Shown: positions 31,566 to 59,428 of the stretch, piece after piece | How the letters are laid out: every line of letters begins with the position of its first letter | How positions within the stretch are numbered: the stretch's first letter is position 1 | Source of the DNA: Eubacteriales bacterium | GTDB taxonomy: Bacteria; Bacillota; Clostridia; Oscillospirales; CAG-272 | Reading direction: 5' to 3' | Length of the DNA: 64,000 nucleotides | Assembly (NCBI GenBank): GCA_045588245.1 | Contig: JAZNDW010000028.1 | Span: forward strand, 18,094 to 82,093 | Notes under the pieces: generated by a model | Databases searched by the model: none | What the model was told of the DNA's origin: nothing | Seen by the model: only the letters and a program-made list of their open reading frames with translations | Program-made: the position numbers and the translations under genes

Positions 31566-31574
31566 TAAGGCATC

Positions 31575-35103: not shown

Positions 35104-35114
35104 TTTATGCAATT

Positions 35115-35303: not shown

Positions 35304-35322
35304 GGTGCAGTGATAAAGACCG

Positions 35323-35634: not shown

Positions 35635-35639
35635 TTTTT

Positions 35640-37384: not shown

Positions 37385-37408
37385 AAAAGTCAGAAAGGCA
37401 CAGTATAT

Positions 37409-43918: not shown

Positions 43919-43996
43919 AACGAAACCGACCTTGTATCACGAATCCCTTGCTTGAAAAATCGGTTTTTAATGTTTTTAATTTGCCGAAATAAACGA

Positions 43997-44029
43997 AGCG
44001 CCATTCATCAGAATGGCGCTTTGCTTTTG
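43997..44029. terminator. Bidirectional rho-independent terminator between the his operon and the convergent glycopolymer operon
   Basis: Stem AGCGCCATTC (43997-44006) pairs with GAATGGCGCT (44011-44020), followed by TTGCTTTTG. Confidence 0.8.
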
Positions 44030-44040: not shown

Positions 44041-45081
44041 TTATTTTTTCAGCTTTCCCATAACTCCGGGATTGTGATTGCTCCAAACGTTTCCGACGCT
44101 GTTTTGACCGCGAGCCCTTACGGTATAAAGATACGCGATCTTGTCTGACGGCGGAACGTCCGTATATTCAAGTCCTGCGTATCCGTCAGCGATCTGACTC
44201 CAAGCCGAACCGGGGACGTTTTCCTTGCGGTACACGCGATAATCGATGGCATTGTTTATGTTGTTCCAGCTGATAGTGACCGAATCGGCGCACGACGTAA
44301 CGCGGACGGTCGGTGCCGGCAGGTACGACAGCTTTGTCGGATCGCTTGCGATATGCTGATGATAAAGCTCAAGCACCGTTTCGGGATCGCCAATAGCGCG
44401 CAATTCGCCGAACTCAAGCCACATAACACGAGTGCAAAGATTTTTGATCTCTCCCAGGTTGTGGGATACGATTATAACGGTCTTGTTGCTGTTGTTGATG
44501 AGAGCTTCGAGCGCGGCATGGCTTTTTGCACGGAATTTCATGTCACCGACGGAAAGGACTTCGTCGATGAGGATTATATCCGTTTCAAGCATTATGGCGA
44601 TGGAAAATGCCAATTTTGAATACATTCCGCTTGAATAATTCTTCACAGGACGGTCAATGGCGTCACCGATCTCGGAAAACTCTACGATGCTGTCAAACTT
44701 TTCGTCAATTTCATCTTTGGTGAATCCCATTGAAAGGGCCGAGAGAATGACGTTGTCGCGTCCTGATAACTCTCCGATAAACCCGGTTCCGAGCGAGAGA
44801 AGAGAAATGCTGTTCCCGTGGAGGTCAACGGAACCCGAATTGGGAGCCATAAGACCGGCAACAGAACGCAAAAGCGTAGATTTTCCGCTTCCGTTAGATC
44901 CGATAATACCGAGTATTTCGCCTTTGGGTACGGTAAAGCTGACATTGTCAAGAGCTTTTACTGTTTTTTTGTTTTTGTCGCCAAAGCGTAAGCTGCGGAT
45001 ACTCCGTTTTTCGGTAATATCATATTGTAAGCATAAATTCTCAACTGTAATAACTTCTGTCATAGTAATCTCTTTCATCAA
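44041..45081 (-). CDS. tagH: Teichoic-acid/polysaccharide export ABC transporter ATP-binding protein (TagH/Wzt type) with a C-terminal FN3-like domain
   Basis: Walker A GSNGSGKST, signature YSSGMYSKLAF, Walker B ILIDEVLSVGD. The last ~100 aa, SVTISWNNINNAIDYRVYRKENVPGSAWSQIADGYAGLEYTDVPPSDKIAYLYTVRARG, fit the fibronectin type III strand pattern. No TM segment. Confidence 0.82.
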   Translation of the reverse strand: MMKEITMTEVITVENLCLQYDITEKRSIRSLRFGDKNKKTVKALDNVSFTVPKGEILGIIGSNGSGKSTLLRSVAGLMAPNSGSVDLHGNSISLLSLGTGFIGELSGRDNVILSALSMGFTKDEIDEKFDSIVEFSEIGDAIDRPVKNYSSGMYSKLAFSIAIMLETDIILIDEVLSVGDMKFRAKSHAALEALINNSNKTVIIVSHNLGEIKNLCTRVMWLEFGELRAIGDPETVLELYHQHIASDPTKLSYLPAPTVRVTSCADSVTISWNNINNAIDYRVYRKENVPGSAWSQIADGYAGLEYTDVPPSDKIAYLYTVRARGQNSVGNVWSNHNPGVMGKLKK

Positions 45082-45872
45082 ACGACTTTGATATATTGGC
45101 TTTCGGACTTATATATCCTGCGGACACCGAGTACGCTGACAACGATTGCTATAATAAAATACGTTATGAGCAGTCCCCATTGAGCCGGTGTTGCATAAAG
45201 CAAGGCATTTCGTGCCTCAAATATAATAAGCGCAATAGGGTTGAAAGTGAATACCGCTTTTGAGACTGCAGGTGCTAACAGCTCGTTTATGGGATAAAAG
45301 ACACCCGTGATGTAAAAGAGCATCTGCAAAAAGATCACCATCAGTTTTTGCAGGTCTTCAACGTAAACGCCGATGTGCATACACCAAGAGCATATACCGA
45401 ACGTGAAAACGAACAGTACGAGCGTTATCGGCACGATCGATAAAAGGTTAAGGCTCAGGGGTACACGGTAAAATACCATAAGAGCGATGATCGGCACGTA
45501 TGAGCAAAGCATTTTGAAAGCGTTTACACAAAGCATTGATAAAATCAGCACAAACTTCGGAATATACACCTTTGACGCAACGGCGCGGTAGCGCTTGAAC
45601 AGCGTTATACTCGAAACTACGCTGCTGTTGAAGAAACGCCAATATGTGAGTCCGACAATGATGAACGCGACAACGTAGGTCGTTGTGCGATGGAACACCG
45701 CGGTAAACACGAACATATAGACGAACATGAAAAGTACAGGCTCAAGCACCCACCAGAATCCGCCGAGCCATGAGCTTGCAAGCTCCGCTTTGAGCTGTGC
45801 TTTGGCGGAATAGAGAATATAGCCTCTGTATTTCATTAAGTCGTTAAAGAATTTTTTCATCGTTAACTCCAT
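45078..45872 (-). CDS. tagG: ABC-2 type polysaccharide/teichoic-acid export permease (TagG/Wzm type)
   Basis: 264 aa with six TM segments. N-terminal YRGYILYSAKAQLKAELASSWLGGFWWVLEP is typical of ABC-2 Wzm/TagG permeases. 4-nt overlap with the ATPase gene. Confidence 0.82.
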   Translation of the reverse strand: MELTMKKFFNDLMKYRGYILYSAKAQLKAELASSWLGGFWWVLEPVLFMFVYMFVFTAVFHRTTTYVVAFIIVGLTYWRFFNSSVVSSITLFKRYRAVASKVYIPKFVLILSMLCVNAFKMLCSYVPIIALMVFYRVPLSLNLLSIVPITLVLFVFTFGICSWCMHIGVYVEDLQKLMVIFLQMLFYITGVFYPINELLAPAVSKAVFTFNPIALIIFEARNALLYATPAQWGLLITYFIIAIVVSVLGVRRIYKSESQYIKVV

Positions 45873-45910: not shown

Positions 45911-48115
45911 TTATAAAGATAATAGTGACGAAAGAAGCGATTCTGCATTTTCGTCGTTTGCCAAGCCTTTATCGTAGAGCTCCGCTATTGCGGCGGCATT
46001 AGCCGTGATCGTCTCGGCGGGGAGCTTGAGAACACAGCGGTCAAGCCGAGTGGGGAAGAGCTCCGCAGGTATTTCGTCTGCGGAATTGTTCTGCCTCAGC
46101 TTAGCCATACGCGATACTCTTGTAGACGACCTGTACTCGCTGTAGTGACGGGCAGAAGGCATCTCTTCGATGATCTTGTGCATCAGCTCGATCACTTCAT
46201 AGTAAAACTCGTTTTCGTAATGCACCGAGTTCAGATAGAGCAGGTTCATTTCATCGGAAACGAAACTGTCAACGAAGTCGATATAGTAGCACCCTGAGCA
46301 TTTTGCAAAATGTTCAGCATATATATCGCTTTTGGGATTGCGCGTGATGCTGTCGTTATAGTCCTTATCTCCGAACCGCTTGAGCTTGCCGCAAAAATCA
46401 ATATAATGCGTCATCCGCTTATGCTTAATAAGAATGACGCGGTCGCCGTAACGTCCGCGGACGTATTCGGCGAGCCGATCAAGTTCGGCTTTTATTTCGT
46501 CGTCGGAGAAGGCTTCGTATAAGTTGACGTTTTTCGCACCGAGCCGTTTTGAGCAGAAATTCTTGTTATCGTTATAGTATTTTCCGCGCAAATTGTATAT
46601 GGAAAGAGCCGTAAGCGTGTAAAAATCCAAAACGAGCCAATCTGCCCCCGACTTGTTGAGTGTGTCGCATACGGTGCCGTCAAGCTGATGCTTGATAACT
46701 AGATTGTCATTTGAGATCGGCGGGGAGAAGAGCATATCGAGATAAAACGGCTTCGGTCCGTCCATGAAAACGGGAAGTGCCTGGAACATATCCGTGCGAA
46801 CTACGATAGAGGACGCTCTGTCAACGAGGCAATACTGGAACGTAAGACGGGATACACAGCTTCCCAAAAGGTCAACAGCGTGCGGCTTCAGTATCGTCTC
46901 TGGCGTGCCGTCGTACAGGCGCAGTATATCCTCTGCGCGATAACGGACCACTTCGTCATCCGTCATCTCAAGCTGCATACGGGCAAAATAGTACCCGTAG
47001 TTGACTTCCGTTACCTGCTCGGGGAAAACGTCGCTCCAGTGAGCGCGGGCGTAATCCACAGTGTCCTTCCAAAGAGCACGAACGGTGAGCTTGTTTTTGA
47101 ACAGTTGATCGTACCGAATACTCGGATTGACGTAATCCTTCGCGATAACGGCGTTCATCGCCAACAGTATTTCACGCGCCGTCTCTGCGTTCGGAGCCGA
47201 CATATCGAGTCCGTCAGCAACCTCGGTGTAGCTTGATTTCAAAAGCTTTTCAGCCGAGCGTAACAGCTCGTAATTTTCCTTGATAAACCAAGGCTCAGCG
47301 CTGTATACGAGATTTTCCACAGCCCAGCTTGAACGTAAAAACGAGCCAAAGGCTTTTTTGTAAAGGTTAGAGTAGTATTTGCAGCATCTGTCAAGAGAAT
47401 AGCGGAATATGGGACGGCGGCGCACGTGCTGACGGCGCACGAAGCGGCGGATGTTGTCAGCGGTATCGGCGTAAGCTTCACTTTCATATTGATTGCCGTT
47501 TGGCTTCTTTTCCATGTAATAAAAACGAAGCGTGTCGATGACGGTGCAGCCCGTCTTTTTTACGAACAGATCCTCGCACTCACTCATGGTTTTATTGAAT
47601 GTGGCGCATTCCTGCTCGCGTATTCTGTCTCCTACGGCATAATATGCGCTTTTATATGTCTTGACGAGCGCGATCTTGTCGGAGGGGAAATGCTTTAATA
47701 TGATCTTTGCAAACTCTTCGGTCAGATGCTGTTTTTTGTCGCGGGACAGATCATTTGCAGATACCTCTTTTGCCCCCTTGCCGTATTCTGTAAGCGGCAT
47801 ATCGGCATACTTTGTGTAATAGCTGGCTTTGCGGGTGACAAGAGGCTGGCAGACATAATGCAGATCAACGATAACGTATTCCGCATCAGCATTCTCAAGA
47901 TAGTCTGAAAGACCGTTGTTGAGATCGACACGGCGGACGGGATCTTTATGCTTACTTTTGAAAATAGGCTTTTTTGATGAAGCGAGAGCAAACGGCGACG
48001 CACCGATAAGAGTGTCGGTGACGTTGATCGCAGATAAAAGTCCGCGCTTATAAATAGTGCCGCAAACGAGGTTTCCGCCGATCAGAAGAACGCTGTTTTC
48101 TTTTTTGTTATTCAT
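45911..48115 (-). CDS. Hypothetical 734-aa cytoplasmic protein of the glycopolymer operon with two related domains
   Basis: No signal peptide or TM segment, and no family confidently recognised. The N-terminal block (VLLIGGNLVCGTI ... AEYVIVDLHYV ... ASYYTKY) recurs around aa 440-560 (AVDLLGSCVSRLTF ... ADWLVLDFYTL ... GKYYNDN). Confidence 0.5.
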   Translation of the reverse strand: MNNKKENSVLLIGGNLVCGTIYKRGLLSAINVTDTLIGASPFALASSKKPIFKSKHKDPVRRVDLNNGLSDYLENADAEYVIVDLHYVCQPLVTRKASYYTKYADMPLTEYGKGAKEVSANDLSRDKKQHLTEEFAKIILKHFPSDKIALVKTYKSAYYAVGDRIREQECATFNKTMSECEDLFVKKTGCTVIDTLRFYYMEKKPNGNQYESEAYADTADNIRRFVRRQHVRRRPIFRYSLDRCCKYYSNLYKKAFGSFLRSSWAVENLVYSAEPWFIKENYELLRSAEKLLKSSYTEVADGLDMSAPNAETAREILLAMNAVIAKDYVNPSIRYDQLFKNKLTVRALWKDTVDYARAHWSDVFPEQVTEVNYGYYFARMQLEMTDDEVVRYRAEDILRLYDGTPETILKPHAVDLLGSCVSRLTFQYCLVDRASSIVVRTDMFQALPVFMDGPKPFYLDMLFSPPISNDNLVIKHQLDGTVCDTLNKSGADWLVLDFYTLTALSIYNLRGKYYNDNKNFCSKRLGAKNVNLYEAFSDDEIKAELDRLAEYVRGRYGDRVILIKHKRMTHYIDFCGKLKRFGDKDYNDSITRNPKSDIYAEHFAKCSGCYYIDFVDSFVSDEMNLLYLNSVHYENEFYYEVIELMHKIIEEMPSARHYSEYRSSTRVSRMAKLRQNNSADEIPAELFPTRLDRCVLKLPAETITANAAAIAELYDKGLANDENAESLLSSLLSL

Positions 48116-50982
48116 TACTTTTTATCCTGAGATGTAGTGTTTTCCTCAGCACGTTTCTTTTCGTCAGCCAAAACGTCTACGCTCCAACGTAAAAGTCTGT
48201 GGGAAACCTGATTGTGCTTAGGAGGGAACTGCATATAGTCTCCGTATTGCATCGTTAAAAATACATCGGGACGGCGCGGCACTCTTGCTCGGTGTCCGTC
48301 AAACAGAACGTCCTGATACGGAAGCAGGTCATCAAGCTTGATATATGTGTATGAGGGAACAAAGCTTGCAACAGTCGTTAGTCCAAGCTCCTCTGCCTTG
48401 TCGTTATAATACGTTGCACGCTCAATGTAGGCTTTCTGCGACTTTTTGAGTGACTGAAGCTTGAAGAAGGTACGCTTCAGTATTCCGTAGCCTTTGCAGT
48501 AAAGCTCGTATAAGTCACGCGGCAGGTAAGGGTCTATCGGTTCGGGCTTCTGATTGTTAACGATGCGGTTATGAACTTTGGATAGACCGATCACCTCTTT
48601 TTTGAAGGCTTCCTGAGCACCGGGCTCGTTGGGGATAAAATCGAAGGGGAAAATATCGAGGCAGATTCCCTTGTGGAAAGCGCGGCGCTCGTTATATTCC
48701 GTGATGTATTCGGTATTGTTCAGCCTTAATTTAGAGAAAAGATACGGGATATGAGGGTCCTTTTTTCTCGTTTGGAGAAAGAATCTTTCGTCAAGATAAG
48801 GCTCAGCTTCGTTAATGAAGCGGTCGTAATCGGCGCGGAGCATGCCGATGTCGATATCGTCGTCCCACGGAATAAATCCGCCGTTACGCATATATCCGAG
48901 CATGGAGCCGCCGCAGATGAAGTAACCGATTCCGAGCTTGCGGCAGATCTCATCAACCTTATCGAGCAGCAAAAAGTCCGCTTTTTGAATTGACGTCACC
49001 TGATAGTGAAGTGCCTCGTCGATAACGGGGGTCCAGACGGAATAGTCCCGCGGACAGTTAATCTCGGTGTCGCGGAAGTTGCATTTTCCAAGAGGAAAGA
49101 GATCGTCCTCGCGTATGAACTTCGATTTTTCATGAGCGACTCTGCCGTAAAGATGCGTTTCATCATCGTCGTTATAATATTGCGCAAGCTCGTCGATCTC
49201 GCGGTAAAGCGACATGATCGGCTCCTCGCCGTATTTTTTCTTTGCGCGCTCAAGTTCTTTTTTCGAGATAGCTTTGGGGTTACCGGATTCATAGTCCGCA
49301 AGCTTTTTGATAAGCGTGTTTCTGCGGTTAAGCTTTCTTACGAATGCGTACTGCGTATCGTATCCTTCGGGGATCTTATCAAAGGGAACGAGTCTTAATT
49401 CGCCTTCAAAATAGAACGGTGTAGACAAAGAAACGGTTTTTGTCAGCTTGGGGCAGCGACGCGCGCTGTCACGGAATTCGGAAAGCTTGATCCCATATTC
49501 ACCGTCGTGATTGCGGAGTGCATGGAGCAGCTTTTCATATTCGGTGCGCAGAAGGGCAACGTCCCATCCCGACGTCGGGTGAGACGGAATGTAGTCGTTA
49601 TAGGTTACAGCTCCGATCAAAAGATCCGCAATAGCAAAATATGTGATATCGTGATCCAGACAAAGCTTTATGAGACGTTTTAAGATCTCTGTTTTTTGTG
49701 CGTTTGCGGCACGGTTATAGTCAATGTCGGATTTTTCTGACCATATATAAAGGTCTGCAGGAACATTGATCTCAAAATCGTTCATCTGCAAACGAACCGT
49801 CGGGAACACCTGTCCGAAAAACAAAGTTTTGCTTTGTCCGCATTCAATGCGGCAGATGCGTGTGGTGTCGGAAAATTCACCGCCGTTATATTTTTGAGCC
49901 GTTGTGTGCAGCGACTTATACGCATTGGAAACAGCTTCCTCGTTGCGGGGTTCGGCATTCAGTGCTGAATTATAGCGTGCGGAGAGCTTTTTTATTTCAT
50001 CCATGAATTCGCGGCGCTCACGTTCTTCTTCGGGAAGGCAGTCGTATGGCATGACGGAAATGACGTTGTCGTATACGTCCTCTACGTCCGCGTAGTCTGC
50101 GTGAGCGATACGAAGCGCACCGTCGGGTGCGCCGTTACGGGCGCAATCAAAACAGATCAGCTTGCTGTCGGGGTCGATAAGCGACACAAGCTTATTTCGG
50201 TCGTGACGGAGCATACCGACTTCGATAGCGGATGTATCAAGATCGGGCGGCAGCTTGCCATACATTCTTGCGCCGACTGCAAGCTTGGAAATTGCAAAAT
50301 AGGGGAGCGAATGCTTGCGGCAAAGCTCGTCAAGGGCACGAAGCGCGGCGAGTCTTTCAACGTCATGCTGCTGCGGTACGTCGGCGCACGTGTCGAGCGC
50401 CGTTGTGGCGACGGCGTTGCCGTAAAAGGCTTTGTTCTTTGTCGGGTAAACGAGCGCACGGTTGAAGGCAGGCGTCGTCTTGCCGACGAGTGACGCCATC
50501 ATAACGGCGTCTTCGTCGCCGTTATACCGCTTTGCAAAAGCGGTGAGCTTTTCGTATGCGGAGTCAAGATTCTCGTCTTTGTTTTTATACATCAGAAGAT
50601 ACGCCTTGTTTGCTTCGTCCATTTGAGAAAGAAAGTTCTTTCTTTCCTCTGCGGACAAAGGAAGAGCGTCATAAGGATAAAGAAGTATTTCCTCGCCGCC
50701 AAGGCTGACGGAAAGAAAGCCGAGCTTCGAGTCGGAAACGGTGAATCCGTATTCGTCAGCGTCAGTGGTGAACGTATCAAAGTCGCATCTCGGCATACCC
50801 ACGCTCCATTCGGACGCGATCTCCACATCAGTGAGCGGACGAAGGTTTCTCGCGGCACGGTCGAGCATACCGACAGCAAAATATGTTACGTCGCGTTTCA
50901 TGGCATAAGCGTGAAGCTTATGTATCACGGCTGTTTTTTCGGTGAGCATAAGCTCGTTTTTTGTATTTTCGTTAGTATTCAT
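48115..50982 (-). CDS. LicD-family phosphotransferase, 955 aa: three degenerate LicD-like modules followed by one canonical LicD domain
   Basis: Canonical module: YFICGGSMLGYMRNGGFIPWDDDIDIGMLRADYDRF ... ICLDIFPFD. Three earlier modules keep the YFA(V/I) strand and the helix but lack the acidic motif: YFAVGMLDRAARN...EWSVGMPRCDFD; YFAISKLAVGARMYG...AIEVGMLRHDRN; YFAIADLLIGAVTYN...GWDVALLRTEYE. Confidence 0.75.
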   Translation of the reverse strand: MNTNENTKNELMLTEKTAVIHKLHAYAMKRDVTYFAVGMLDRAARNLRPLTDVEIASEWSVGMPRCDFDTFTTDADEYGFTVSDSKLGFLSVSLGGEEILLYPYDALPLSAEERKNFLSQMDEANKAYLLMYKNKDENLDSAYEKLTAFAKRYNGDEDAVMMASLVGKTTPAFNRALVYPTKNKAFYGNAVATTALDTCADVPQQHDVERLAALRALDELCRKHSLPYFAISKLAVGARMYGKLPPDLDTSAIEVGMLRHDRNKLVSLIDPDSKLICFDCARNGAPDGALRIAHADYADVEDVYDNVISVMPYDCLPEEERERREFMDEIKKLSARYNSALNAEPRNEEAVSNAYKSLHTTAQKYNGGEFSDTTRICRIECGQSKTLFFGQVFPTVRLQMNDFEINVPADLYIWSEKSDIDYNRAANAQKTEILKRLIKLCLDHDITYFAIADLLIGAVTYNDYIPSHPTSGWDVALLRTEYEKLLHALRNHDGEYGIKLSEFRDSARRCPKLTKTVSLSTPFYFEGELRLVPFDKIPEGYDTQYAFVRKLNRRNTLIKKLADYESGNPKAISKKELERAKKKYGEEPIMSLYREIDELAQYYNDDDETHLYGRVAHEKSKFIREDDLFPLGKCNFRDTEINCPRDYSVWTPVIDEALHYQVTSIQKADFLLLDKVDEICRKLGIGYFICGGSMLGYMRNGGFIPWDDDIDIGMLRADYDRFINEAEPYLDERFFLQTRKKDPHIPYLFSKLRLNNTEYITEYNERRAFHKGICLDIFPFDFIPNEPGAQEAFKKEVIGLSKVHNRIVNNQKPEPIDPYLPRDLYELYCKGYGILKRTFFKLQSLKKSQKAYIERATYYNDKAEELGLTTVASFVPSYTYIKLDDLLPYQDVLFDGHRARVPRRPDVFLTMQYGDYMQFPPKHNQVSHRLLRWSVDVLADEKKRAEENTTSQDKK

Positions 50983-50998: not shown

Positions 50999-52414
50999 TC
51001 ACTTTATATTTGTCGGATCCTCGCGCATAACCGTACTGCCTAAATCAAACTCCACGGCATTGTGGTGACTGTACCGTTTTGACGGAGATGGCCAGGTCAT
51101 ATAGTTATTTCCGTATGAGAATCGCAGATAAGCGTCGTAATCCTTCGGGACGGGGAATAAGTGTCCCTCAAATGCTATATTGACAGAATCGGAAAGAATA
51201 TCGGCGCGGAAGTTTCCGTGACCGAGATGCTCACCCATACCGTCGTAGCAGTAACGTGAGTTTTTGCTGTTATATAGCGTCATAACACCGCGTTCTAAAT
51301 GTTCGAGCTTTTCTATCGGCGTGCGCCGAACGTAACGGCTTACAATGCGGCAAATGCCACGCAGCTTGCCGTAAAAATGGAGAGGGGAGCCGTCCCACTT
51401 ATGAAACACCATAGAACGTAGTAGACGTGTCGCAAATATATGAAGCTTCAACAGTGCCGTATTCTTCGGCGCACCGTCGTGTGCGAAGATATCGATCCAT
51501 ACCTCGTTGTGCATTTCGGGAAAGCGGCTTGAAAACTCTGTCACAAACCGTGTATTCAAAAGACGAAGCTTCGAAAACGGGCTGTGATAGTGCGGATCGG
51601 TTTTTGAATTCTGGAAAAAGAAGCCGCCGCCGACTTTTTCGGGTGCGATCACTGAAAGACGGTCAAAGTTTTCGCGCGTCATCATAACGTCGATGTCGTC
51701 ATCCCAGGGGATGAAGCCGCCGTGACGGACAGCACCCAGAAGCGTGCCGCCTCCGAGAAAGTATTGAATGCCGTTCTCACGGCATATTCGGTCAAGCTCC
51801 AAAAGGCAAAGCAGCTGTGCTTTTTGCAAGCGTCGAAGCTCGCCGTTATATGATGTGTCGTCGTAAAATCGCCTTTCGGGATGCGTTTTCAAAAGACGAA
51901 GCGTGCGTACGGCATCCTCACGGCAAACAAGCTTTTCAAATTCGATGTCACCTATGCCGTAGCTGCCGATTTTGTACGAGGATACGGCAGAGATCAACAA
52001 GGAAAAAAAGTCGATCACGTGCAGTTTCGGGTGCGTATCGTCAAAAACGATACTGTCATCGGCACCGAATCCTTCGGGAAGCCCTGCACCGTAAAGCGGC
52101 GGCAGGTTGACGGTCATGTATGTGTCGTTACCGCCGTCAACGGCGGCGGTGTAGACAGCAATCACGCGTGAAGCGTCCGTTATAATGTTCGATTTCGGAA
52201 TATCAACGAAGATATGGCAGTCAGCACCGCCTACTGTGACGTCAGCACCGTGTGCTGTAAAAATATCATGTGCCGCATCGTCAAGCACGTGGCAAGCGGA
52301 CGTAAAAGCAATGATTTGTCCTTTAAGGCGGGAGCTTGCAGACAAAGCCGTTACCCATTCCGCACGAAACTCGGACATATTCAATTCATACGTGTCGGTA
52401 TTTCGTTTCGTCAT
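50999..52414 (-). CDS. LicD-family phosphotransferase with an unrecognised ~230-aa N-terminal domain
   Basis: Motifs YFLGGGTLLGAVRHGGFIPWDDDIDVMMTRENFDRL and VWIDIFAHD. The start at the ATG at 52414 (AGGAGG 5 nt upstream, 11 nt after the upstream stop) is preferred over the 30-codon extension in the ORF track. Confidence 0.78.
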   Translation of the reverse strand: MTKRNTDTYELNMSEFRAEWVTALSASSRLKGQIIAFTSACHVLDDAAHDIFTAHGADVTVGGADCHIFVDIPKSNIITDASRVIAVYTAAVDGGNDTYMTVNLPPLYGAGLPEGFGADDSIVFDDTHPKLHVIDFFSLLISAVSSYKIGSYGIGDIEFEKLVCREDAVRTLRLLKTHPERRFYDDTSYNGELRRLQKAQLLCLLELDRICRENGIQYFLGGGTLLGAVRHGGFIPWDDDIDVMMTRENFDRLSVIAPEKVGGGFFFQNSKTDPHYHSPFSKLRLLNTRFVTEFSSRFPEMHNEVWIDIFAHDGAPKNTALLKLHIFATRLLRSMVFHKWDGSPLHFYGKLRGICRIVSRYVRRTPIEKLEHLERGVMTLYNSKNSRYCYDGMGEHLGHGNFRADILSDSVNIAFEGHLFPVPKDYDAYLRFSYGNNYMTWPSPSKRYSHHNAVEFDLGSTVMREDPTNIK

Positions 52415-52425
52415 ACGTCCTCCTT

Positions 52426-53568
52426 TCACTCGGGAATGATCTTGAGCAGACGGAGAAGCTTGTCGGTACTGTTGCCGTCGCAGTATGCCATGTCGCTTTC
52501 CCAAAGCACGTCCAAACGGGCGCGGTACGGTTCATCCGCCCACGCATCAATAGTCGTTACTGCGTCGTAAAGCGACGTATAATCGTCTGCGAAGTATGCA
52601 GGCATTTTTTTATAGTCGGGGTAAAGCCCGCGCGCCGCCTCGTAAGCGGCAAGGTCGGGAGCGTAGAGAATGATGGGGCGGCGGTAGTACAGATAGTCGA
52701 ACAAAATCGAAGAATAATCCGTTATGAGCGCATCGGCAACGGCGAGCAGCTCGTTTGACGTAAACTCGGGAGTCGTATCAAGATCGACACCGTTTGAAAA
52801 ACGGTGCGTTTTAATGAGTACGACGATGTTATCGGACACTTCATCGCGAAGACGCAGAATATCGTCCGCGCCAACGAGATGTCCTGAGTGGACGTCACCG
52901 CGGAAAGTCGGCGTCCACAGAATGATCTTTTTGCCCTTGTATTCGGGGTAATCTTCAAAAAAGCGGCGTCTTATGTCAGCCTCGCGGTCAGCACGGTATA
53001 GTAGATCAATGCGCGAAACACCCGATGTGCAAAAGCACTCCCTCGGTATCATCATAGCGTGCGACAAAACGTCGGAAACGACGTCTGAGGAAGCTGTGAA
53101 CACGTCCGTATTTCGATACTGATCCTTCATCATCGCGGCAGAATCCTCAGGGGAATCGATGCCGACCTTTTTCATAAGTCCGCCAGAATGCCAGAGCTGA
53201 ACGAGCGTTGTGCCGCGGCGCTTTCGGCAAGCGGCGGCGGGGATGAAGCAATCAGAGATGAAAACGTACTCCGCACGCGCATAGAGCGGCATAAAGCCGA
53301 GCATGATACAGAGCCCCTTTACGGGGGAGCAAAATGAATAGTCACGGAAGTATTCCTTGACAGTCAAGCCGTCAATTGAATGGAGTCTGTCGCGCAGAAC
53401 GACCATTGAATAAGGAATACTGTTCTGATGTCCATCCGCGAGGACGACGAGATTTTTCTTTACGGGAAATAAACAGCAAACGTAGTAAAGCGGCGATAAA
53501 ACGATCAAACGCAGTGTGTTTTTGAGAAAACGCCGTATCCTGACGGCAATATTCGTTTTGCGTTTCAT
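52426..53568 (-). CDS. CDP-alditol/CDP-glycerol phosphotransferase of the TagB/TagF family
   Basis: Glyphos_transf motifs QLWHSGGLMKKVG, IILWTPTFRG and ALITDYSSILFDYLYYRRPIILYAPD. Confidence 0.8.
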   Translation of the reverse strand: MKRKTNIAVRIRRFLKNTLRLIVLSPLYYVCCLFPVKKNLVVLADGHQNSIPYSMVVLRDRLHSIDGLTVKEYFRDYSFCSPVKGLCIMLGFMPLYARAEYVFISDCFIPAAACRKRRGTTLVQLWHSGGLMKKVGIDSPEDSAAMMKDQYRNTDVFTASSDVVSDVLSHAMMIPRECFCTSGVSRIDLLYRADREADIRRRFFEDYPEYKGKKIILWTPTFRGDVHSGHLVGADDILRLRDEVSDNIVVLIKTHRFSNGVDLDTTPEFTSNELLAVADALITDYSSILFDYLYYRRPIILYAPDLAAYEAARGLYPDYKKMPAYFADDYTSLYDAVTTIDAWADEPYRARLDVLWESDMAYCDGNSTDKLLRLLKIIPE

Positions 53569-53626: not shown

Positions 53627-54682
53627 TCAGGCTTCGCTGTCGATTAAGATCTTGCCTCTGACGGCACCGGGGGTGCGGAAAAGCTCGAATGCCCGGTCGA
53701 TCTCGGAAAGCGGAATGATCCTGTCGATCATCGTGTCGTCAAGTTTAAGCTGACCGTTTGCGAAGAAATGGGCAGCAGCCGTCCATTCTTCGCCCGGGAA
53801 GGGGGCGGAATAGCTCATCCACGAGCCCGTTACGTACATTTCACGGCGGTTAAGCAGCTCCCATTCGGAAACGGAGAAGACTACCTCATTCTTGGGTGTG
53901 CCGATCATGCAAACGGATGCGGCGTTAGCCGCAAGCTTGAATGCGAGCTTTACGGTTGCGGAAGAGCCCGCAGTTTCAAAAACGAAATCATATCCGCGTC
54001 CGTCCGTCAGCGCGAGTGCTTTTGAAAGAAAATCGGGATCGGACGTGTCTACACCCGCATCGGCACCGAACAGGTCGATGCTGCGCTGCAGTTTTTCGGG
54101 AGAATTATAATCGAAAACGACGATCTTGGACGCGCCGAAGATACGGCACCATTCAAGCGTCAGCGTTCCGATAGTACCCGCGCCTATAATGGCGACGGTC
54201 TTGCCCGGAACGTATTTGGCGCAGCGAACGCCGTGCATGGCTACTGTTGTAGGCTCAAAGAATGCACCGAGCTTGAAGCTGACCTCGTCAGCTATCGGTA
54301 CGGTGTTAACAGCGGGCAAAGCCACGTATTCGGCAAAGCTGCCGTTACGGCGCGAGCCGATGAATGTGTAATGCTTGCAAAGCGAATACTGACCGCGCAT
54401 ACAGTCTGTGCATTTCATGCAGGGAACGAGCGGCACACCTGCAATTCGCTGACCGACGTATCTGTCGGTGACGCCCTCACCAAGTTCAACGATCGTGCCC
54501 GAAAACTCATGACCTAAAATGATCGGGAAGAAGTGACACGCATTTCCGTTGACTCTCGGCAGGTCTGAGCCGCAGATTCCCGTATATTTAACTCTGACGA
54601 GCACCTCGCCCGGTGCGGGCTTCGGTGTTTCTGTTTTTTCGTATCTGATATCAAAAGGACCGTGAACGACACCTGCGTACAT
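53627..54682 (-). CDS. Zinc-dependent MDR dehydrogenase, GatD-like (galactitol-1-phosphate 5-dehydrogenase type) or TarJ-like alditol-phosphate dehydrogenase
   Basis: Catalytic Zn ligands in GICGSDLPR and GHEFSG, structural Zn cluster CMKCTDCMRGQYSLC, Rossmann IIGAGTIG. Blocks CGSDLPR..N..H.(F/Y)P..LGHEFSG, FIGSRR.G.FAEY and GSWM.YS.P(F/W)PG.EW agree with my memory of E. coli GatD better than with S. aureus TarJ. This was not checked by alignment. Confidence 0.65.
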   Translation of the reverse strand: MYAGVVHGPFDIRYEKTETPKPAPGEVLVRVKYTGICGSDLPRVNGNACHFFPIILGHEFSGTIVELGEGVTDRYVGQRIAGVPLVPCMKCTDCMRGQYSLCKHYTFIGSRRNGSFAEYVALPAVNTVPIADEVSFKLGAFFEPTTVAMHGVRCAKYVPGKTVAIIGAGTIGTLTLEWCRIFGASKIVVFDYNSPEKLQRSIDLFGADAGVDTSDPDFLSKALALTDGRGYDFVFETAGSSATVKLAFKLAANAASVCMIGTPKNEVVFSVSEWELLNRREMYVTGSWMSYSAPFPGEEWTAAAHFFANGQLKLDDTMIDRIIPLSEIDRAFELFRTPGAVRGKILIDSEA

Positions 54683-54696
54683 TGTTATGTCTCCTT

Positions 54697-55431
54697 TTAT
54701 ATGGGTTTTTCATTTTCGGCGCAAGGGCGCGCATTGGGGAAGAAATCATTGAGCAGTATCGTCAGAAGGTGCAGGTCCCCCGGATACGTGATCTTTAGAT
54801 TCAAAACCTCGGAGTGAACGATCTTCATCGGAATATTATGCTCCATTGCGATTGCACCGGCAGAGGTCATAGCCTCAAGCTCGGCTTCATCGGCACCGCA
54901 GTAAATGCCGTAAATCGCACCAAAGCGGAATGCTTCGGGCGATGCACCCGAAACTATGCGCTGACGGGGAACGACGCGTTCGATGAATTCCTCCTCTGTC
55001 GTCATGTAAACCGTGTCATACTGTGCCTGTCCCAGCGTTGCACCGCCGTATTCGTTAACGGCGTTGATGATCTTTGCAACACCGTTTTTATCGCAGTAAG
55101 GATGCGTTGCATCGTGAATGAGCACGACGTCATCTTTCTTAGCCCAGTCCTTCATCGCGCAAAGTCCGTTTTTGACGGAGCTTGAACGGTTCGGACCGCC
55201 CTTCGTTATCGCGGCGACTTTGTCAGCACCGAGCCATTCGGACCACGCTCTAACGTATTCGATCCAGCTTTCGTGCGAAACGATAACGATCTTGTCTATG
55301 GAATCGCAATTCTGATGTGCTTCGAGAATGTATGAGAAAATAGGGCGGTTGTGCAGCTCAATGTACTGCTTTGGTACGTCGGCACCGAGTCTTGTTCCGC
55401 TGCCGCCCATCATAAGTAAAAGAATGTTCAT
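54697..55431 (-). CDS. IspD/TarI-family cytidylyltransferase (alditol-phosphate cytidylyltransferase)
   Basis: N-terminal LLMMGGSGTRLGADVPKQY (GxGxRxxxxxPKQ), plus VLIHDATHP and KITYPGDL motifs. Confidence 0.8.
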   Translation of the reverse strand: MNILLLMMGGSGTRLGADVPKQYIELHNRPIFSYILEAHQNCDSIDKIVIVSHESWIEYVRAWSEWLGADKVAAITKGGPNRSSSVKNGLCAMKDWAKKDDVVLIHDATHPYCDKNGVAKIINAVNEYGGATLGQAQYDTVYMTTEEEFIERVVPRQRIVSGASPEAFRFGAIYGIYCGADEAELEAMTSAGAIAMEHNIPMKIVHSEVLNLKITYPGDLHLLTILLNDFFPNARPCAENEKPI

Positions 55432-55452
55432 TGTGTCCTCCGTAACTTAGCT

Positions 55453-56784
55453 TTAAGAAAAATGATAACGGTTGATGACGTAATTCGTCTTTGTTGCGTA
55501 GTTATATTCCTCAATAACGTCGATGATATGGCTCTTCACGAGCTCGCGCGCATCGGGACTGAGCATACCCTCACGCACCATGATGTATTGGTTAGGTAAA
55601 AACTGACGTAACAGACCGTGAGGAATTCTGCGGCTGTTGATGTTTGCAAAAAGTTTTTCAATAGCATCGTTTACGCGTTTGTCGGGATAATAATAACGTG
55701 AGCGGTCTGAAAGCGAATATTGACGCTTCAGATGAAGCTCAAGTTCGCTGCCGCGATAGTATTTGCGCCAATGGCGGTCATCTTCGAGCATAACTTCTTC
55801 GAGAACTTCGCGGAAATGAGACTGATCGTCATAGGGGAAGAGCTGTTCTTCGATCATGTTGAGCGCGAAAAGTGCTTCGCGCAGCGCGTATGTGAGTGCG
55901 GGACCGACCTTCAGTATGGCGATACCGTCGGCTACCATTTCGCGCAGGTGGAAAATGGGCTGATAGTCGGTCGAGTGTCCCTCCATAACGAGGGAAGGGT
56001 GCTTTCTGACGGCTTCGCAAAGTTCGCTCGTTTTGAGTCTGTTGTAGCAAGCAATGTTTTCGTTGCCGAACTCAACGCCGGGCTGAACGACGATGCCGAC
56101 GACGTTTTCCATGGCGTTAGGCATGCCTAATTTTTCAAATTCCGCCGTGTAAGCATTAAGCGTTGCTTCAAGGTCTTCAACTCGTGTGACGGAAATAGTG
56201 TCATCCTCGTTTTGCTCACCTCCGGGGATCGGAACCTCGCTTCCGATGATGTAAACGGGACGTACCTCGGCGTGATTATTTTCAAGAAGCTTAAAATACT
56301 CCTCCTCACAGGCGCGGTACAGACGTGCTCCGCGGCGGGCTATCGTTGAAAGCAGAAGCGGCTTGTCCCTCGGGTCGTCTGCCAGACGCATACTCGTGTC
56401 AAGGTGGATCTTTTTGTATCCTGCGGCAACATACTCACGGACGAGCGCTTCGGCTTTTTCCATAGCAACATCTTCTTTTTCTTTATACCACGGAAGCGGA
56501 CCGAGATGGTCTCCTCCCAAAATGACACCGGATTTCGGGAAGTTCACTCTGTCAGCGATCTCATATACCATATCTCTAAAGTCGGCAGGACGCATGCCCG
56601 TGTATCCGCCGAGCTGATTTACCTGATTGGCGGTAGCTTCGATAAGGATACTGTCGTTAAAACGAACGCCTTGCTGTAGGCAGGCTTCAATGACGATCGG
56701 GTTGGCGGTGCAGAAAGACGGAATACCGCAGGATATTCCGCGCTGACGTTTTTCGATTATATTTCGGATAAAATTGTTATTCAT
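55453..56784 (-). CDS. GatZ/KbaZ-family protein (tagatose-bisphosphate aldolase non-catalytic subunit / tagatose-6-phosphate 4-epimerase family)
   Basis: 443 aa. The N-terminus GIPSFCTANPIVIEACLQQG...ILIEATANQVNQLGGYTGMRPADF...ILGGDHLGPLPW is characteristic of the GatZ/KbaZ family. No GatY/KbaY-type class II aldolase gene is present in the window. Confidence 0.75.
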   Translation of the reverse strand: MNNNFIRNIIEKRQRGISCGIPSFCTANPIVIEACLQQGVRFNDSILIEATANQVNQLGGYTGMRPADFRDMVYEIADRVNFPKSGVILGGDHLGPLPWYKEKEDVAMEKAEALVREYVAAGYKKIHLDTSMRLADDPRDKPLLLSTIARRGARLYRACEEEYFKLLENNHAEVRPVYIIGSEVPIPGGEQNEDDTISVTRVEDLEATLNAYTAEFEKLGMPNAMENVVGIVVQPGVEFGNENIACYNRLKTSELCEAVRKHPSLVMEGHSTDYQPIFHLREMVADGIAILKVGPALTYALREALFALNMIEEQLFPYDDQSHFREVLEEVMLEDDRHWRKYYRGSELELHLKRQYSLSDRSRYYYPDKRVNDAIEKLFANINSRRIPHGLLRQFLPNQYIMVREGMLSPDARELVKSHIIDVIEEYNYATKTNYVINRYHFS

Positions 56785-56836: not shown

Positions 56837-57616
56837 TCATTTGTTGATCTTACGGTATTTGTTAACGCTTCGTACAACGTAGCAAAGCCAGCTTTTTACT
56901 GCTGTTGGAATGCCGATGCCGGCTTTGATGTACGTTTTGAACGTTCTTTTGGCGGCGCGCAGCTTGTTTGACGAAAGTGAAGATGCGCCGACTCGGTATA
57001 TCAAAAGCGGCTGATCTATACCCGTCGCAGTAACATTTCGATCGCGCAGTATGCGGATCCATGCGGCGTAGTCCTCGCAGATCTCGTTGTCGGTTTCGGT
57101 GAAGCATCCATCGAGCAAATCTCGTTTTATAAGAACCGACGAGCACGAGATTATGTTCTGCTTCAATATTTCGGAGTACGATACTGTCGGCGGCACGTGA
57201 AGAATGTCTCCGATAACGTCACCGTTGGCATTGATGAAAGAAGACGCCGAAAAAACGAAATCCGAACTGTGAGCTATAGCGGCATCGAGCTGTAACGAGA
57301 GCTTTTCGGGCAACCACAAGTCGTCGCTGTCAAGAAACGCTATCCATTCGCCTGCGGCACGGTCGATAGCATGCCGACGCGCAGCGGCGGCTGAGTGACA
57401 GTCCGTCATCTGATAAACTCGGATGCGGCTGTCGGCTGCAGATTCAGCCAACGCGACAGAGTAGGTGCCGTCGGATGAGCCGTTGTCGACGATAATGAGT
57501 TCCCAGTCCGTATACGTCTGACGTTTTGCCGCCCCGATTGCTTCGGTGATGTAATTTTCGCAGTTCAGAGCAGGCATAACGATGCTGACGTGCGGAGACT
57601 TTTTTTCGTTTTGCAT
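56837..57616 (-). CDS. Family 2 glycosyltransferase, first gene of the glycopolymer operon
   Basis: Motifs VSIVMPALNCENYI, LIIVDNGSSDGT and FLDSDDLW (DxD). The start at the ATG at 57616 (GGAG upstream) is preferred over the 21-codon extension in the ORF track. Confidence 0.85.
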   Translation of the reverse strand: MQNEKKSPHVSIVMPALNCENYITEAIGAAKRQTYTDWELIIVDNGSSDGTYSVALAESAADSRIRVYQMTDCHSAAAARRHAIDRAAGEWIAFLDSDDLWLPEKLSLQLDAAIAHSSDFVFSASSFINANGDVIGDILHVPPTVSYSEILKQNIISCSSVLIKRDLLDGCFTETDNEICEDYAAWIRILRDRNVTATGIDQPLLIYRVGASSLSSNKLRAAKRTFKTYIKAGIGIPTAVKSWLCYVVRSVNKYRKINK

Positions 57617-57857
57617 TGGCTTCTCCTTCGTAATAATACTCCCAAAAAAATCGGAAGATAGAAACGCATAATCCACCACGTTACAATTAAAATCATTTTA
57701 TCATACATTATAATAAAATGCAAGGAAATTTGACTTTTATCGCGCAAGATGAGCACGCTCACAACGCGCCGTAAGTAAGATTCAACATAATATATTTGAA
57801 ATGTTTGTACAGATTCAATATTATTCATGAACGAAATGAAAACAACGCAACTTTTAC

Positions 57858-57994: not shown

Positions 57995-59428
57995 ATGAGT
58001 GGAAAAAATAAAATCGAGCGTGAAAACACAAAAGGAATCGTCCGAAGTCTGGAAAGCCTGCTTGAAGTAGCGATACTTACGGTGATGTATTACATCATCT
58101 GGCGGGTGGGGTACGGTGCCGACGGATTCCCGGCGTATTCACATAACGGTAAATATGTCCTGATGGGACTGTATGCGTTTTTAACGTATTTATTGTTTGA
58201 AAACATGGATGGTTTCATGTTCGGCAATCTACGGAAAACCGACCTGATAATCACTCAGATAATTGCGATCTTTATGGTGAATTTTATCACCTATTTTCAG
58301 CTTTGCCTGATAGCAAATGCGCTTATCAGCCCGATTCCGATGCTTATTCTTTTTGCGGTTGACGTGATAATGGAGATAGCATTTGTTTATCTTTACGTTT
58401 CGATCTATTATCAGCTGTATGCACCGCATAACATGATAATGGTTTTCGGAACGGATAATGCTATGGTGCTCAAGGTAAAGATGGACACCAGACGCGACAA
58501 ATATAAAATCAAAAAGCTTATTAATGTCGACGAAGGCTTCGATAAGATCATCGGTGAGATCGTTAAATATGATGCCGTGGTTATCAACGACGTGCCTACG
58601 CAAATCAGAAATGATATTTTGAAGTTCTGCTATAAAAATCGCATCCGTGCCTATGTCGTTCCGAAAATTTCGGACGTACTCATGCGTGGCGCACGTGACA
58701 TTTCACTGTTTGATACGCCTATCGTTATGGTAAAAGGAACGGGTCTGACGGTCAGCCAGCGTTTCTGCAAGCGGCTATTTGACATCGTTATGAGTCTATT
58801 CATAATGGTGCCGATCCTTCCTGTAATGTTAATTATCTCAATAGCTATTAGGATCGAGGATGGAGGTCCTGCCTTCTATAAGCAGGAACGTGTCACCGTT
58901 GGCGGAAAGCCGTTCCAGATACTCAAATTCCGCAGCATGATAGTCAATGCCGAACAGCTCCACGGAGCCGTTATGGCAACGGATAACGATCCCAGAATCA
59001 CAAAGGTCGGACGTTTTATACGCGCGACCCGTCTTGACGAGCTGCCTCAGATATTCAATATTTTTATGGGCGACATGAGTTTTGTCGGTCCGCGTCCCGA
59101 ACGCACTGAGTACGCCGAGAGATATCTTGACGATATTCCCGAATTTGATTACCGACTCAAGGTAAAGGGCGGACTTACGGGGTACGCTCAGGTCTACGGT
59201 AAATATAACACCAGTGCATACGATAAGCTTCGTCTTGACTTGATGTATATTGAAAATTATTCATTCTGGCTTGATATGAAGCTGATCCTTTTGACGCTTC
59301 GAATCATTTTTATCAAATCGAGCACCGAAGGGGTCGATAAGGCTGCTGAAAACGGTAGGATCGCCGTTGAGATCGCGGATAAAGTGAAACATGAACATGA
59401 CATCGACAGCGGCGAAGAGAAAGTATAA
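57995..59428 (+). CDS. Polyprenyl-phosphate hexose-1-phosphate transferase (large WbaP/CpsE-type priming phosphoglycosyltransferase)
   Basis: N-terminal TM bundle and a central nucleotide-binding-like domain. The C-terminal catalytic domain has KRLFDIVMS, FYKQERVTVGGKPFQILKFRSM, DELPQIFNIFMGDMSFVGPRPE and YIENYSFWLDMKLIL. Confidence 0.85.
   Translation: MSGKNKIERENTKGIVRSLESLLEVAILTVMYYIIWRVGYGADGFPAYSHNGKYVLMGLYAFLTYLLFENMDGFMFGNLRKTDLIITQIIAIFMVNFITYFQLCLIANALISPIPMLILFAVDVIMEIAFVYLYVSIYYQLYAPHNMIMVFGTDNAMVLKVKMDTRRDKYKIKKLINVDEGFDKIIGEIVKYDAVVINDVPTQIRNDILKFCYKNRIRAYVVPKISDVLMRGARDISLFDTPIVMVKGTGLTVSQRFCKRLFDIVMSLFIMVPILPVMLIISIAIRIEDGGPAFYKQERVTVGGKPFQILKFRSMIVNAEQLHGAVMATDNDPRITKVGRFIRATRLDELPQIFNIFMGDMSFVGPRPERTEYAERYLDDIPEFDYRLKVKGGLTGYAQVYGKYNTSAYDKLRLDLMYIENYSFWLDMKLILLTLRIIFIKSSTEGVDKAAENGRIAVEIADKVKHEHDIDSGEEKV

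Follow-up and report, generated by a model that had tools for sequence, protein, structure and literature searches.

A stretch of 64,000 nucleotides from the genome of an Eubacteriales bacterium (GTDB lineage Bacteria; Bacillota; Clostridia; Oscillospirales; CAG-272; assembly GCA_045588245.1, contig JAZNDW010000028.1, positions 18,094 to 82,093 of the forward strand), referred to here as the window, contains a polymer biosynthesis operon in which three consecutive genes encode a GatZ/KbaZ-family protein (the GatZ-like protein), a cytidylyltransferase (CT) of the IspD/TarI superfamily and a Zn-dependent medium-chain dehydrogenase/reductase (MDR) resembling GatD. A reading of the sequence alone (the original prediction) had proposed that this trio leads from D-fructose-6-phosphate (F6P) to a CDP-hexitol donor of the CDP-galactitol type. 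The analysis presented here indicates that the trio is a conserved module, almost always found beside phosphotransferases of the LicD or TagF families. Judging from its sequence relationships and, above all, from the comparison of related loci, the module probably makes CDP-galactitol from F6P, with reduction taking place before activation by CTP. The wider statement, that the product is some CDP-hexitol derived from D-tagatose-6-phosphate (T6P), we regard as very likely.

In the proposed pathway, the GatZ-type enzyme, acting on its own, would epimerize F6P at C4 to give T6P. The GatD-type Zn-dehydrogenase, working in the reductive direction, would then use NAD(P)H to convert T6P into L-galactitol-1-phosphate (equivalent to D-galactitol-6-phosphate), and the CT would combine this hexitol phosphate with CTP, yielding CDP-galactitol (CDP-6-D-galactitol, the same compound as CDP-1-L-galactitol) and pyrophosphate. 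Finally, LicD and TagF enzymes would transfer or polymerize galactitol-phosphate on a lipid-linked glycan built by a Bac_transf enzyme and a GT2 glycosyltransferase, and TagGH would export the resulting galactitol-phosphate-containing, teichoic acid-like wall polymer or capsule. As a whole, the module would correspond to the catabolic GatD-GatZ pair, such as that present in a galactitol phosphotransferase system (PTS) operon of Catenisphaera (see below), with its flux reversed and a nucleotidyltransferase added at the end. The evidence differs in nature from step to step: the demonstrated activity of the family and the conservation of residues point to the first one; orthology to catabolic GatD, along with genomic context, argues for the second; and the chemistry of the superfamily, the exclusion of TarI and IspD and the linkage of the genes are consistent with the third. 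The fourth is proposed from linkage and because transferases of both families, LicD and TagF, are known to use CDP-alditols, one example being the match of the large LicD protein's catalytic domain to FKRP. The order of the steps and the stereochemistry at C2 are likewise predictions.

The three enzymes and their closest relatives

The GatZ-like protein covers positions 2-419 of the 420 in the profile PF08013 (GatZ_KbaZ-like), with a score of 572.1 bits for a gathering score of 26.7. Members of this family used to go by the name of 'aldolase chaperone'. It is 44% identical to Escherichia coli GatZ (357 bits) and matches the Sinorhizobium meliloti homologue deposited as PDB 3txv with 382 bits. 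The residues that separate GatZ/KbaZ proteins from class II fructose-bisphosphate aldolases have been defined in E. coli as C20, E44, H88, E171, H257 and K279 (PMC11907403). The window protein has every one of them, as C25, E49, H93, E183, H270 and K292, and they are invariant in 73 out of 73 compared sequences, a set formed by the cassette copies (those of the related loci described in the next section), one catabolic copy and E. coli GatZ. Epimerization of F6P to T6P in vivo has been reported for E. coli GatZ and KbaZ (PMC11907403), and the homologues from Agrobacterium tumefaciens, S. meliloti and Caldilinea aerophila are cited in that same article as F6P/T6P 4-epimerases. The activity that the original prediction had attributed to stand-alone members of this family is documented in this way, and the window protein is predicted to be a stand-alone D-fructose-6-phosphate/D-tagatose-6-phosphate 4-epimerase.

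For the MDR, the best NCBIfam match was the model NF007642 of GatD (galactitol-1-phosphate 5-dehydrogenase, EC 1.1.1.251; 271.5 bits) and the best PDB match was E. coli GatD (4a2c, E = 6.7e-68). That this enzyme resembles GatD more than TarJ had also been put forward, and the alignments bear it out: identity reaches 39% over 296 aa with E. coli GatD (227 bits), compared with 27% over 190 aa for Staphylococcus epidermidis TarJ (48 bits) and 22% for Listeria TarJ (40 bits), the two TarJ references coming from genuine tarI-tarJ pairs in an S. epidermidis plasmid and in a Listeria record. The ligands of the catalytic zinc (C37, H58, E59 and E143) and those of the structural zinc (C88, C91, C94 and C102) are invariant in 74 aligned sequences that include E. 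coli GatD, and the cysteines of the structural site are missing from TarJ in the alignment of the S. epidermidis protein with the MDR. The motifs CGSDxPR and GSWMxYSxPxPGxEW are common to the window MDR and E. coli GatD and are altered or gapped in other aligned MDRs (the threonine dehydrogenases, Tdh, and 4ej6). In total, 38 invariant positions are common to the window MDR, the catabolic enzymes linked to PTS genes and E. coli GatD. Regarding the cofactor, the window MDR has Asp191, an NAD-type signature. In the column of residue 191, where the cassette MDRs vary (loci L010-L089), NAD-type residues were found in part of the 74 sequences, including the window enzyme and E. coli GatD (Asp in 39, Glu in 4), and NADP-type residues, often followed by Arg, in others (Asn in 11, Gly in 12, Ser in 3). 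This suggests that cassette MDRs have repeatedly adapted to NADPH in a biosynthetic role; the NADP-type signature that many of them show would suit a biosynthetic reductase.

The window MDR is encoded outside any galactitol PTS/T6P catabolic operon, in a polymer biosynthesis operon instead; the chemistry expected of it there would be unchanged, but its role another one. Enzymes encoded in clostridial and erysipelotrichial galactitol-PTS operons are nevertheless 61-64% identical to it, closer than the majority of the other cassette MDRs (43-61%), the whole range of identity with the cassette MDRs being 43-86%. In two of the catabolic loci, L005 and L008 (Hungatella and a related metagenomic lineage), the genes encode EIIA-EIIB-EIIC(GAT), a regulator, the MDR, PfkB and a class II aldolase. 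In Catenisphaera (L006), PTS-GAT genes are accompanied by the MDR and by a stand-alone GatZ homologue, and both kinase and aldolase are absent. This arrangement of EIIA/B/C-GAT, GatD-like MDR and stand-alone GatZ, devoid of T6P kinase/aldolase, occupies positions 5832-10382 in the Catenisphaera-type contigs L006/L007. The absence of kinase and aldolase implies a short galactitol route, from galactitol-1-phosphate to T6P and F6P, that bypasses tagatose-1,6-bisphosphate, and the pairing of GatD and GatZ has a natural precedent in Catenisphaera. With this background, the window MDR is predicted to be a D-tagatose-6-phosphate reductase forming L-galactitol-1-phosphate (D-galactitol-6-phosphate).

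A different setting for relatives of this enzyme was observed in L093 (2462-8072), L094 (4501-9793) and L095 (4436-8222), where the MDR gene is located directly 3' of an FGGY kinase gene, with a 4-nt overlap in L093; this last locus has a class II aldolase as well. These loci may represent a non-PTS, kinase-dependent route of hexitol catabolism, and their MDRs probably share the same phospho-hexitol substrate.

The CT matches PF01128 (IspD) with 112.7 bits. Its scores are below the cut-offs of both the TarI model (NF001183; 133.4 bits, cut-off 166) and the IspD model (TIGR00453; 133.6 bits, cut-off 181.3), while true TarIs, used as a control, reach 351-408 bits on the TarI model. Since the nucleotide-binding motifs GGxGxR and PKQ and residue K213 are kept, the protein is a member of the PF01128 superfamily, and the CTP-binding residues G10, G12, R14, K21 and K213 are all conserved. 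The clade to which it belongs shows the motifs IHDATHPY, GGATL, GASPEAF and TSAGA, compared with HDxVRPF, GxxDT, GQTPQSF and TDACK in TarI. The motifs HD(A/S)(V/A)RPF and (Q)TPQ(S/A)F, located on the substrate side in TarI/IspD, are replaced by invariant HDATHPY and GASPEAF, and 21 clade-invariant positions inside conserved motifs set the CT apart from TarI. The best PDB matches of the CT are TarI proteins, and comparison with TarI proteins gives 105-113 bits, with 28% identity to that of Listeria; identity is 24% (78 bits) with Campylobacter jejuni HS5.18, an F6P cytidylyltransferase whose sequence was taken from the supplement of PMC10918830. The CT is predicted to be a galactitol-phosphate cytidylyltransferase that makes CDP-galactitol.

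Occurrence and genomic context of the trio

The motifs of the CT clade were used to scan 185,579 species-representative genomes. This yielded 147 matching stretches. Confirmation as relatives was obtained for 122, and the best 80 loci among them were retrieved for comparison; the species of the window is absent from the scanned set, and the best-matching CT is 85% identical to that of the window. The survey of genomes for the trio had been suggested in the original prediction, and its outcome agrees with it: the complete set of GatZ, CT and MDR genes is present in 69 of the 80 loci, and a gene for LicD (47) or TagF (27) is located within 3 kb in 62 of these 69. Using C, Z and D for the CT, GatZ and MDR genes, respectively, the trio appears in six different orders (CZD in 42 loci, ZCD in 9, CDZ in 9, DCZ in 4, ZDC in 3 and DZC in 2), usually with only a few nucleotides between genes. 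Pairwise distance matrices computed for GatZ, CT and MDR are correlated with each other (r = 0.78-0.87), which suggests that the three genes have been inherited jointly. The carriers are labelled as Oscillospiraceae, Ruminococcus, Acutalibacteraceae, Lachnospiraceae, Christensenellales, Eubacteriaceae, Anaerovoracaceae, Erysipelotrichaceae and Eggerthellales; they are mostly gut and rumen anaerobes, and one of them is an isolate, Clostridiaceae bacterium 1XD21-29 (L086). On balance, we favour the view that at least 69 species of anaerobes, most of them from gut or rumen, would build wall or capsular polymers with galactitol phosphate, using CDP-galactitol supplied by a reversed catabolic pathway as the donor.

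The loci with an incomplete trio are mostly cut by contig ends. Loci L033 and L032 contain the CT gene (10001-10699) and an adjacent LicD gene, with GatZ and MDR genes absent from the available flanks, which extend 10 kb on each side in L033 and around 2 kb downstream in L032. The complete cassette, from GT2 to TagG or TagH, is kept in L001, L002 (and its duplicates L003 and L004), L010-L012 and L015, and the Bac_transf gene is found in L001 at the same place as in the window.

A TarI-TarJ pair was identified beside the clade CT in three loci: L053 (10001-14330), L058 (5390-13000) and L071 (4437-12455). The last two have the complete trio in addition to the pair, while in L053 the CT is found with neither GatZ nor MDR nearby. 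The TarJ proteins of the three loci are 52-56% identical to Listeria TarJ, and on the TarI model L058 and L071 have TarIs with scores of 351-364 bits, compared with 111-123 bits for the cassette CTs of these two loci. The coexistence of true TarI and TarJ with the clade CT or the trio indicates that the two systems are distinct rather than redundant, and suggests that L053, L058 and L071 specify polymers with two different alditol phosphates.

Genes that would be expected for sugar catabolism were also sought. In the 64-kb window, tblastn searches (E<=1e-3) with E. coli GatY and with the Hungatella class II aldolase, PfkB and EIIC-GAT gave no match, nor did the two TarJ proteins used as queries under the same conditions. 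Pfam scans of the other large open reading frames (ORFs) of the window revealed no PTS, catabolic genes or sugar regulator. Likewise, tblastn with the class II aldolase, PfkB and EIIC-GAT was negative in all 80 CT-clade loci. The absence from the window of GatY/KbaY, PTS, T6P kinase and aldolase genes, noted in the original prediction, is upheld by these searches and, together with the results for the 80 loci, so is its view that catabolism is unlikely.

Order of the steps and identity of the product

The characteristics of the module can be compared with those of several known systems. The TarJ/TarI pair of Staphylococcus, Listeria, Bacillus and Streptococcus follows the same logic, with reduction of a ketose phosphate and subsequent activation with CTP by an IspD-fold enzyme. 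It is likewise associated with a TagF/TagGH-type wall polymer locus and its reductase also has a Zn-MDR fold. However, the reductase of the window is of the GatD lineage, the CT falls off the TarI model and has different motifs in the substrate site, and the module adds a GatZ epimerase to make the ketose from F6P, the predicted alditol being a hexitol. In the synthesis of CDP-D-mannitol by Mnp1/Mnp2 of Streptococcus pneumoniae 35A and of CDP-6-D-glucitol by HS5.18/HS5.17 of C. jejuni HS:5, a cytidylyltransferase acts on F6P and an SDR (short-chain dehydrogenase/reductase; PF01370) then reduces CDP-fructose (PMC10918830). As in our proposal, a CDP-hexitol is obtained from F6P through a PF01128 cytidylyltransferase, for a phosphodiester-linked hexitol of capsule or lipopolysaccharide (PMC10918830). 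In contrast to those two-enzyme pathways with an SDR, the window module comprises three enzymes, with C4 epimerization to tagatose and a Zn-MDR; galactitol, its predicted product, is another stereoisomer, and the divergence of the CT from HS5.18 has been indicated above. The trio belongs to neither the TarJ/TarI nor the Mnp/HS5 system, since the lineage of the reductase, the clade of the CT and the extra epimerase differ.

With the galactitol catabolism of E. coli (gatYZABCD) and Catenisphaera (L006), the module shares the GatD and GatZ families and the intermediates galactitol-1-phosphate, T6P and F6P. It differs in that the flux would be reversed in the anabolic direction and coupled to CT and LicD/TagF, and in the lack of PTS, kinase and aldolase; many cassette MDRs also differ in being of NADP type, which is not the case of the window MDR. 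The stand-alone GatZ epimerases known from A. tumefaciens, S. meliloti (3txv), C. aerophila and E. coli (GatZ/KbaZ) are of the same family as the window protein, have the six signature residues and work with no aldolase partner. Those enzymes have been related to galactitol/altritol catabolism or industrial use, whereas the window enzyme would provide T6P for the biosynthesis of an activated alditol.

Several observations weigh against the pathway as proposed, in which a galactitol phosphate is formed before its activation. The order of reactions departs from hexitol precedent, as both characterized CDP-hexitol pathways, Mnp1/Mnp2 and HS5.18/HS5.17, activate the ketose phosphate first (PMC10918830). 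The GatZ-like protein scores below the equivalog cut-off of TIGR02810 (516.3 bits for 568.8) and the MDR below that of NF007642 (271.5 for 550). In the case of the MDR, a model calibrated on enterobacterial sequences is involved, and the PTS-linked Firmicute homologues also fall below the cut-off (300.6 and 307.1 bits), so that the failure reflects lineage and not function. A PTS-linked Firmicute GatZ homologue is similarly under the NCBIfam cut-off, with 499 bits; the missed TIGR02810 cut-off, along with the absence of GatY/class II aldolase in the window and the 80 loci, indicates that the GatZ-like protein is a member of the family but not of the enterobacterial aldolase-subunit type. The GatD-family MDRs of L093-L095, 63-65% identical to the window MDR and 76-84% to the PTS-linked ones, adjoin an FGGY-family kinase, with an aldo-keto reductase and ABC sugar transporters nearby, which leaves room for other physiological substrates in the MDR family. 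Two or three CT-clade loci with ample flanking sequence (L033, its relative L032, and L053) have no GatZ or MDR nearby; in the case of L033 and L032, the partner genes may be located at another site of the chromosome, or uptake may supply the hexitol phosphate. The placement of the PTS-linked catabolic enzymes within the diversity of the cassette MDRs, beside the sub-clade of the window, speaks for the pathway, but it comes from a simple neighbour-joining tree rooted on E. coli GatD, lacking support values and with just two catabolic references. Lastly, no report of CDP-galactitol or of a bacterial polymer with galactitol phosphate was found in open-access full text, in line with the original prediction, which knew of no described CDP-galactitol pathway, and a description in a subscription journal is possible; the matches on galactitol in the open-access literature concerned only catabolism, transcriptomics and derivatives for methylation analysis.

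Given that precedent, the alternative closest to the proposed pathway is one where the CT acts first, converting T6P and CTP into CDP-6-tagatose, which the MDR would reduce to CDP-galactitol, so that the end product would be the same. The substrate of the CT cannot be read from homology, given its 28% identity to Listeria TarI and the altered motifs of the substrate site. We consider this order unlikely: the reductases of the known pathways are SDR/PF01370 proteins rather than MDRs, and no PF01370 gene is present in the operon; the MDR is interleaved in the phylogeny with PTS-linked GatDs, which must act on free galactitol-1-phosphate, and has the 38 invariant positions in common with them and E. 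coli GatD; and the CT is slightly closer to alditol-phosphate cytidylyltransferases (TarI) than to the F6P-activating HS5.18, according to the bit scores given above. Somewhat less probable still is a hexitol other than galactitol, either the opposite C2 epimer (CDP-D-talitol, equivalent to CDP-D-altritol), for which the original prediction had already made room, or a product of a different ketose phosphate. The diversity of the cassette MDRs would leave room for it, as would the NADP-type signature of many of them, which represents adaptation away from the catabolic enzyme, and the presence of family members in a non-PTS context with FGGY kinase and aldo-keto reductase; moreover, facial selectivity is not readable from sequence. 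Yet the orthology to GatD, by microscopic reversibility, implies that L-galactitol-1-phosphate is obtained from T6P, the motifs of the active site and those specific to GatD are retained all the way from E. coli to the cassette enzymes, and GatZ, with F6P/T6P epimerization as the only documented activity of its family, is co-conserved in 69 of the 80 loci.

Two further explanations do away with the hexitol donor altogether. An ordinary CDP-ribitol pair of the TarI/TarJ type, or a CDP-arabinitol pair, reducing a pentulose-5-phosphate and with the GatZ-like gene as a bystander, would be in keeping with the teichoic acid-like character of the operon (TagF, TagGH), with TarI proteins being the best PDB matches of the CT, and with the fact that some Listeria MDRs annotated as GatD adjoin pentose-phosphate genes such as rpe. 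Nonetheless, the MDR is just 22-27% identical to TarJ, the CT fails the TarI model on which true TarIs score 351-408 bits, and TarI/TarJ are separately present beside the trio (L058, L071) or the clade CT (L053); besides, the co-inheritance of GatZ with CT and MDR in six gene orders indicates that it is not a bystander. This explanation is very improbable, and a CDP-ribitol pathway of the TarIJ type was rejected by direct comparison with real TarI/TarJ pairs. As for the GatZ-like and GatD-like genes being a catabolic remnant for the degradation of imported galactitol or tagatose, placed by chance in a polymer operon, it could be argued that both families are best known from catabolism and that the close homologues of the MDR are catabolic. 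But the window lacks PTS, kinase, aldolase and sugar regulator, and aldolase, PfkB and EIIC-GAT are missing from the 80 loci; the trio genes are tightly packed in a biosynthetic operon, and their linkage to CT and LicD/TagF holds across families and phyla. A catabolic role is hardly credible and was rejected on the basis of the empty tblastn searches in the window and the 80 loci.

The polymer operon and its significance

The three ORFs of the trio were found exactly where the original prediction had placed them, on the minus strand and embedded in a polymer operon, with gaps of 21 nt between the GatZ-like and CT genes and 14 nt between the CT and MDR genes. Shine-Dalgarno-like sites precede the three of them (GAGAGGA, GGAGG and AAGGAG). 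The operon consists of 10 genes on the minus strand, from around 57616 to 44041, in the order GT2, GatZ-like, CT, MDR, TagF-like, LicD (501 aa), LicD (955 aa), DUF6270, TagG and TagH. Coordinates are given in Table 1.

Table 1. Features of the polymer operon and its boundaries in the window (positions are those of the 64-kb stretch)
Feature	Position	Strand	Details
Bac_transf polyprenyl-phosphate sugar-phosphate transferase, divergent	57995..59428	+	PF02397, 225.5 bits
GT2 glycosyltransferase, TuaG-like, operon gene 1	56837..57679	-	PF00535, 104 bits
GatZ/KbaZ-family protein	55453..56784	-	443 aa; PF08013
IspD/TarI-superfamily cytidylyltransferase (CT), distinct clade	54697..55431	-	244 aa; PF01128
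GatD-like Zn-dependent MDR dehydrogenase	53627..54682	-	351 aa; PF08240 + PF00107
TagF-family CDP-alditol phosphotransferase	52426..53568	-	380 aa; PF04464, 173.9 bits
LicD-family phosphotransferase	50999..52504	-	501 aa, catalytic domain 241-465; PF04991, 144.8 bits
Large LicD-family phosphotransferase	48115..50982	-	955 aa, catalytic domain 680-914; PF04991, 153.8 bits
DUF6270-containing protein	45911..48115	-	734 aa; PF19786, 29.7 bits
TagG-like ABC-2 permease	45078..45872	-	PF01061, 27.9 bits
TagH-like ABC transporter ATPase, final operon gene	44041..45081	-	TagH models, 203-206 bits; PF00005
Intrinsic-terminator-like hairpin, operon end	43996..44021	-	11-13 bp stem, 6-7 GC pairs, T-rich tail

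Two of the start codons listed for these genes deserve comment. The GTG assigned to the GT2 gene (57679) is probably wrong and the true start would be an in-frame ATG at 57616, which has an AAGGAG site 6 nt ahead and gives a 259-aa product, compared with 248 aa for the L001 homologue. The TTG listed for the 501-aa LicD gene creates a 79-nt overlap with the end of the TagF-like gene (52426-52504), and the real start is probably further downstream. The hairpin at the end of the operon is bidirectional: on the plus strand (43994-44023) it serves convergent his/PHP genes, and on the minus strand the end of tagH.

The window holds the combination of genes proper of a locus for an ABC transporter-dependent, teichoic acid-like polymer, i.e. 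TagF (PF04464), two LicD proteins, TagG/TagH and Bac_transf. The divergent Bac_transf protein is likely the initiator of the polymer, and the TagF-like and both LicD proteins are candidate consumers of the CDP-hexitol. Matches of the TagF-like protein to TarL, TarF and TarB are weak, all of them far below the cut-offs; neither the GT2 protein on the TuaG model (188.8 bits) nor the TagH-like ATPase on the TagH models reaches the corresponding cut-off. The only PDB match of the 955-aa LicD protein, a weak one limited to its catalytic domain, is FKRP (6kaj, E 5.7e-5), a CDP-ribitol-dependent ribitol-phosphate transferase, and homologues of this catalytic domain flank the trio in most of the related loci. 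For the N-terminal region of around 670 aa of the same protein, no relative in PDB and no recognizable domain were found, and the DUF6270 protein has no PDB relative either. Orthologues of the latter, 54-56% identical, occupy the same position in the loci with the full cassette (L001, L002 with its duplicates L003 and L004, L010-L012 and L015). Both the DUF6270 protein and the N-terminal region of the large LicD protein (48115-50130) are conserved, with 51-62% identity, in all full cassettes, and they are candidates for new functions in polymer assembly.

The remaining content of the window is typical of the chromosome of a spore-forming Firmicute, and includes a sortase, a large surface protein, SpoIIE, a Clp ATPase and a his operon. 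The sortase gene (591-1529) is near that of the surface protein, of 1410 aa with F5/8 type C and Big_4 domains (3119-7351), and an M24 aminopeptidase gene (1694-2935) lies between the two. The region 14049-17022 encodes an MBOAT-family membrane O-acyltransferase (DltB/AlgI-like) and, after it, a 482-aa protein with only a weak leucine-rich-repeat match; they may constitute a pair for O-acylation of a surface polymer, separate from the trio operon. Genes for VTC-domain and DUF4956 proteins (29992-31645) adjoin a tRNA gene on the plus strand (31575-31645; Rfam, 68.9 bits), beyond which the Rfam scan gave nothing. No LCP ligase was found among the scanned ORFs of the window, namely those outside 31714-39747 and, within 1-40000, those of at least 180 aa.

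Teichoic acids, as well as many capsules and O-antigens, are built from CDP-activated alditols, the known ones being those of glycerol, ribitol, arabinitol, mannitol and glucitol, and ribitol phosphate is found even on mammalian dystroglycan. Each further donor of this kind has brought to light antigens, phage receptors and transferase specificities that were new. The module described here extends the known theme of CDP-alditol donor synthesis and does not overturn it. If the proposed pathway is true, CDP-galactitol would be a new nucleotide-alditol, made by a new pathway logic in which an epimerase, an MDR reductase and a cytidylyltransferase act in succession, and a 4-epimerase of the GatZ type and a dehydrogenase of the GatD type would for the first time be given an anabolic role, with the reassignment of two enzyme families regarded as catabolic. 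In Clostridia genomes the trio would then be routinely mis-annotated as a tagatose-bisphosphate aldolase subunit, a galactitol-1-phosphate dehydrogenase and IspD, and the motifs IHDATHPY and GASPEAF of the CT offer a simple genome marker for the module. The proposed pathway would also imply the existence of an uncharacterized surface polymer in Firmicutes that are abundant in the gut and rumen and have been poorly cultured.

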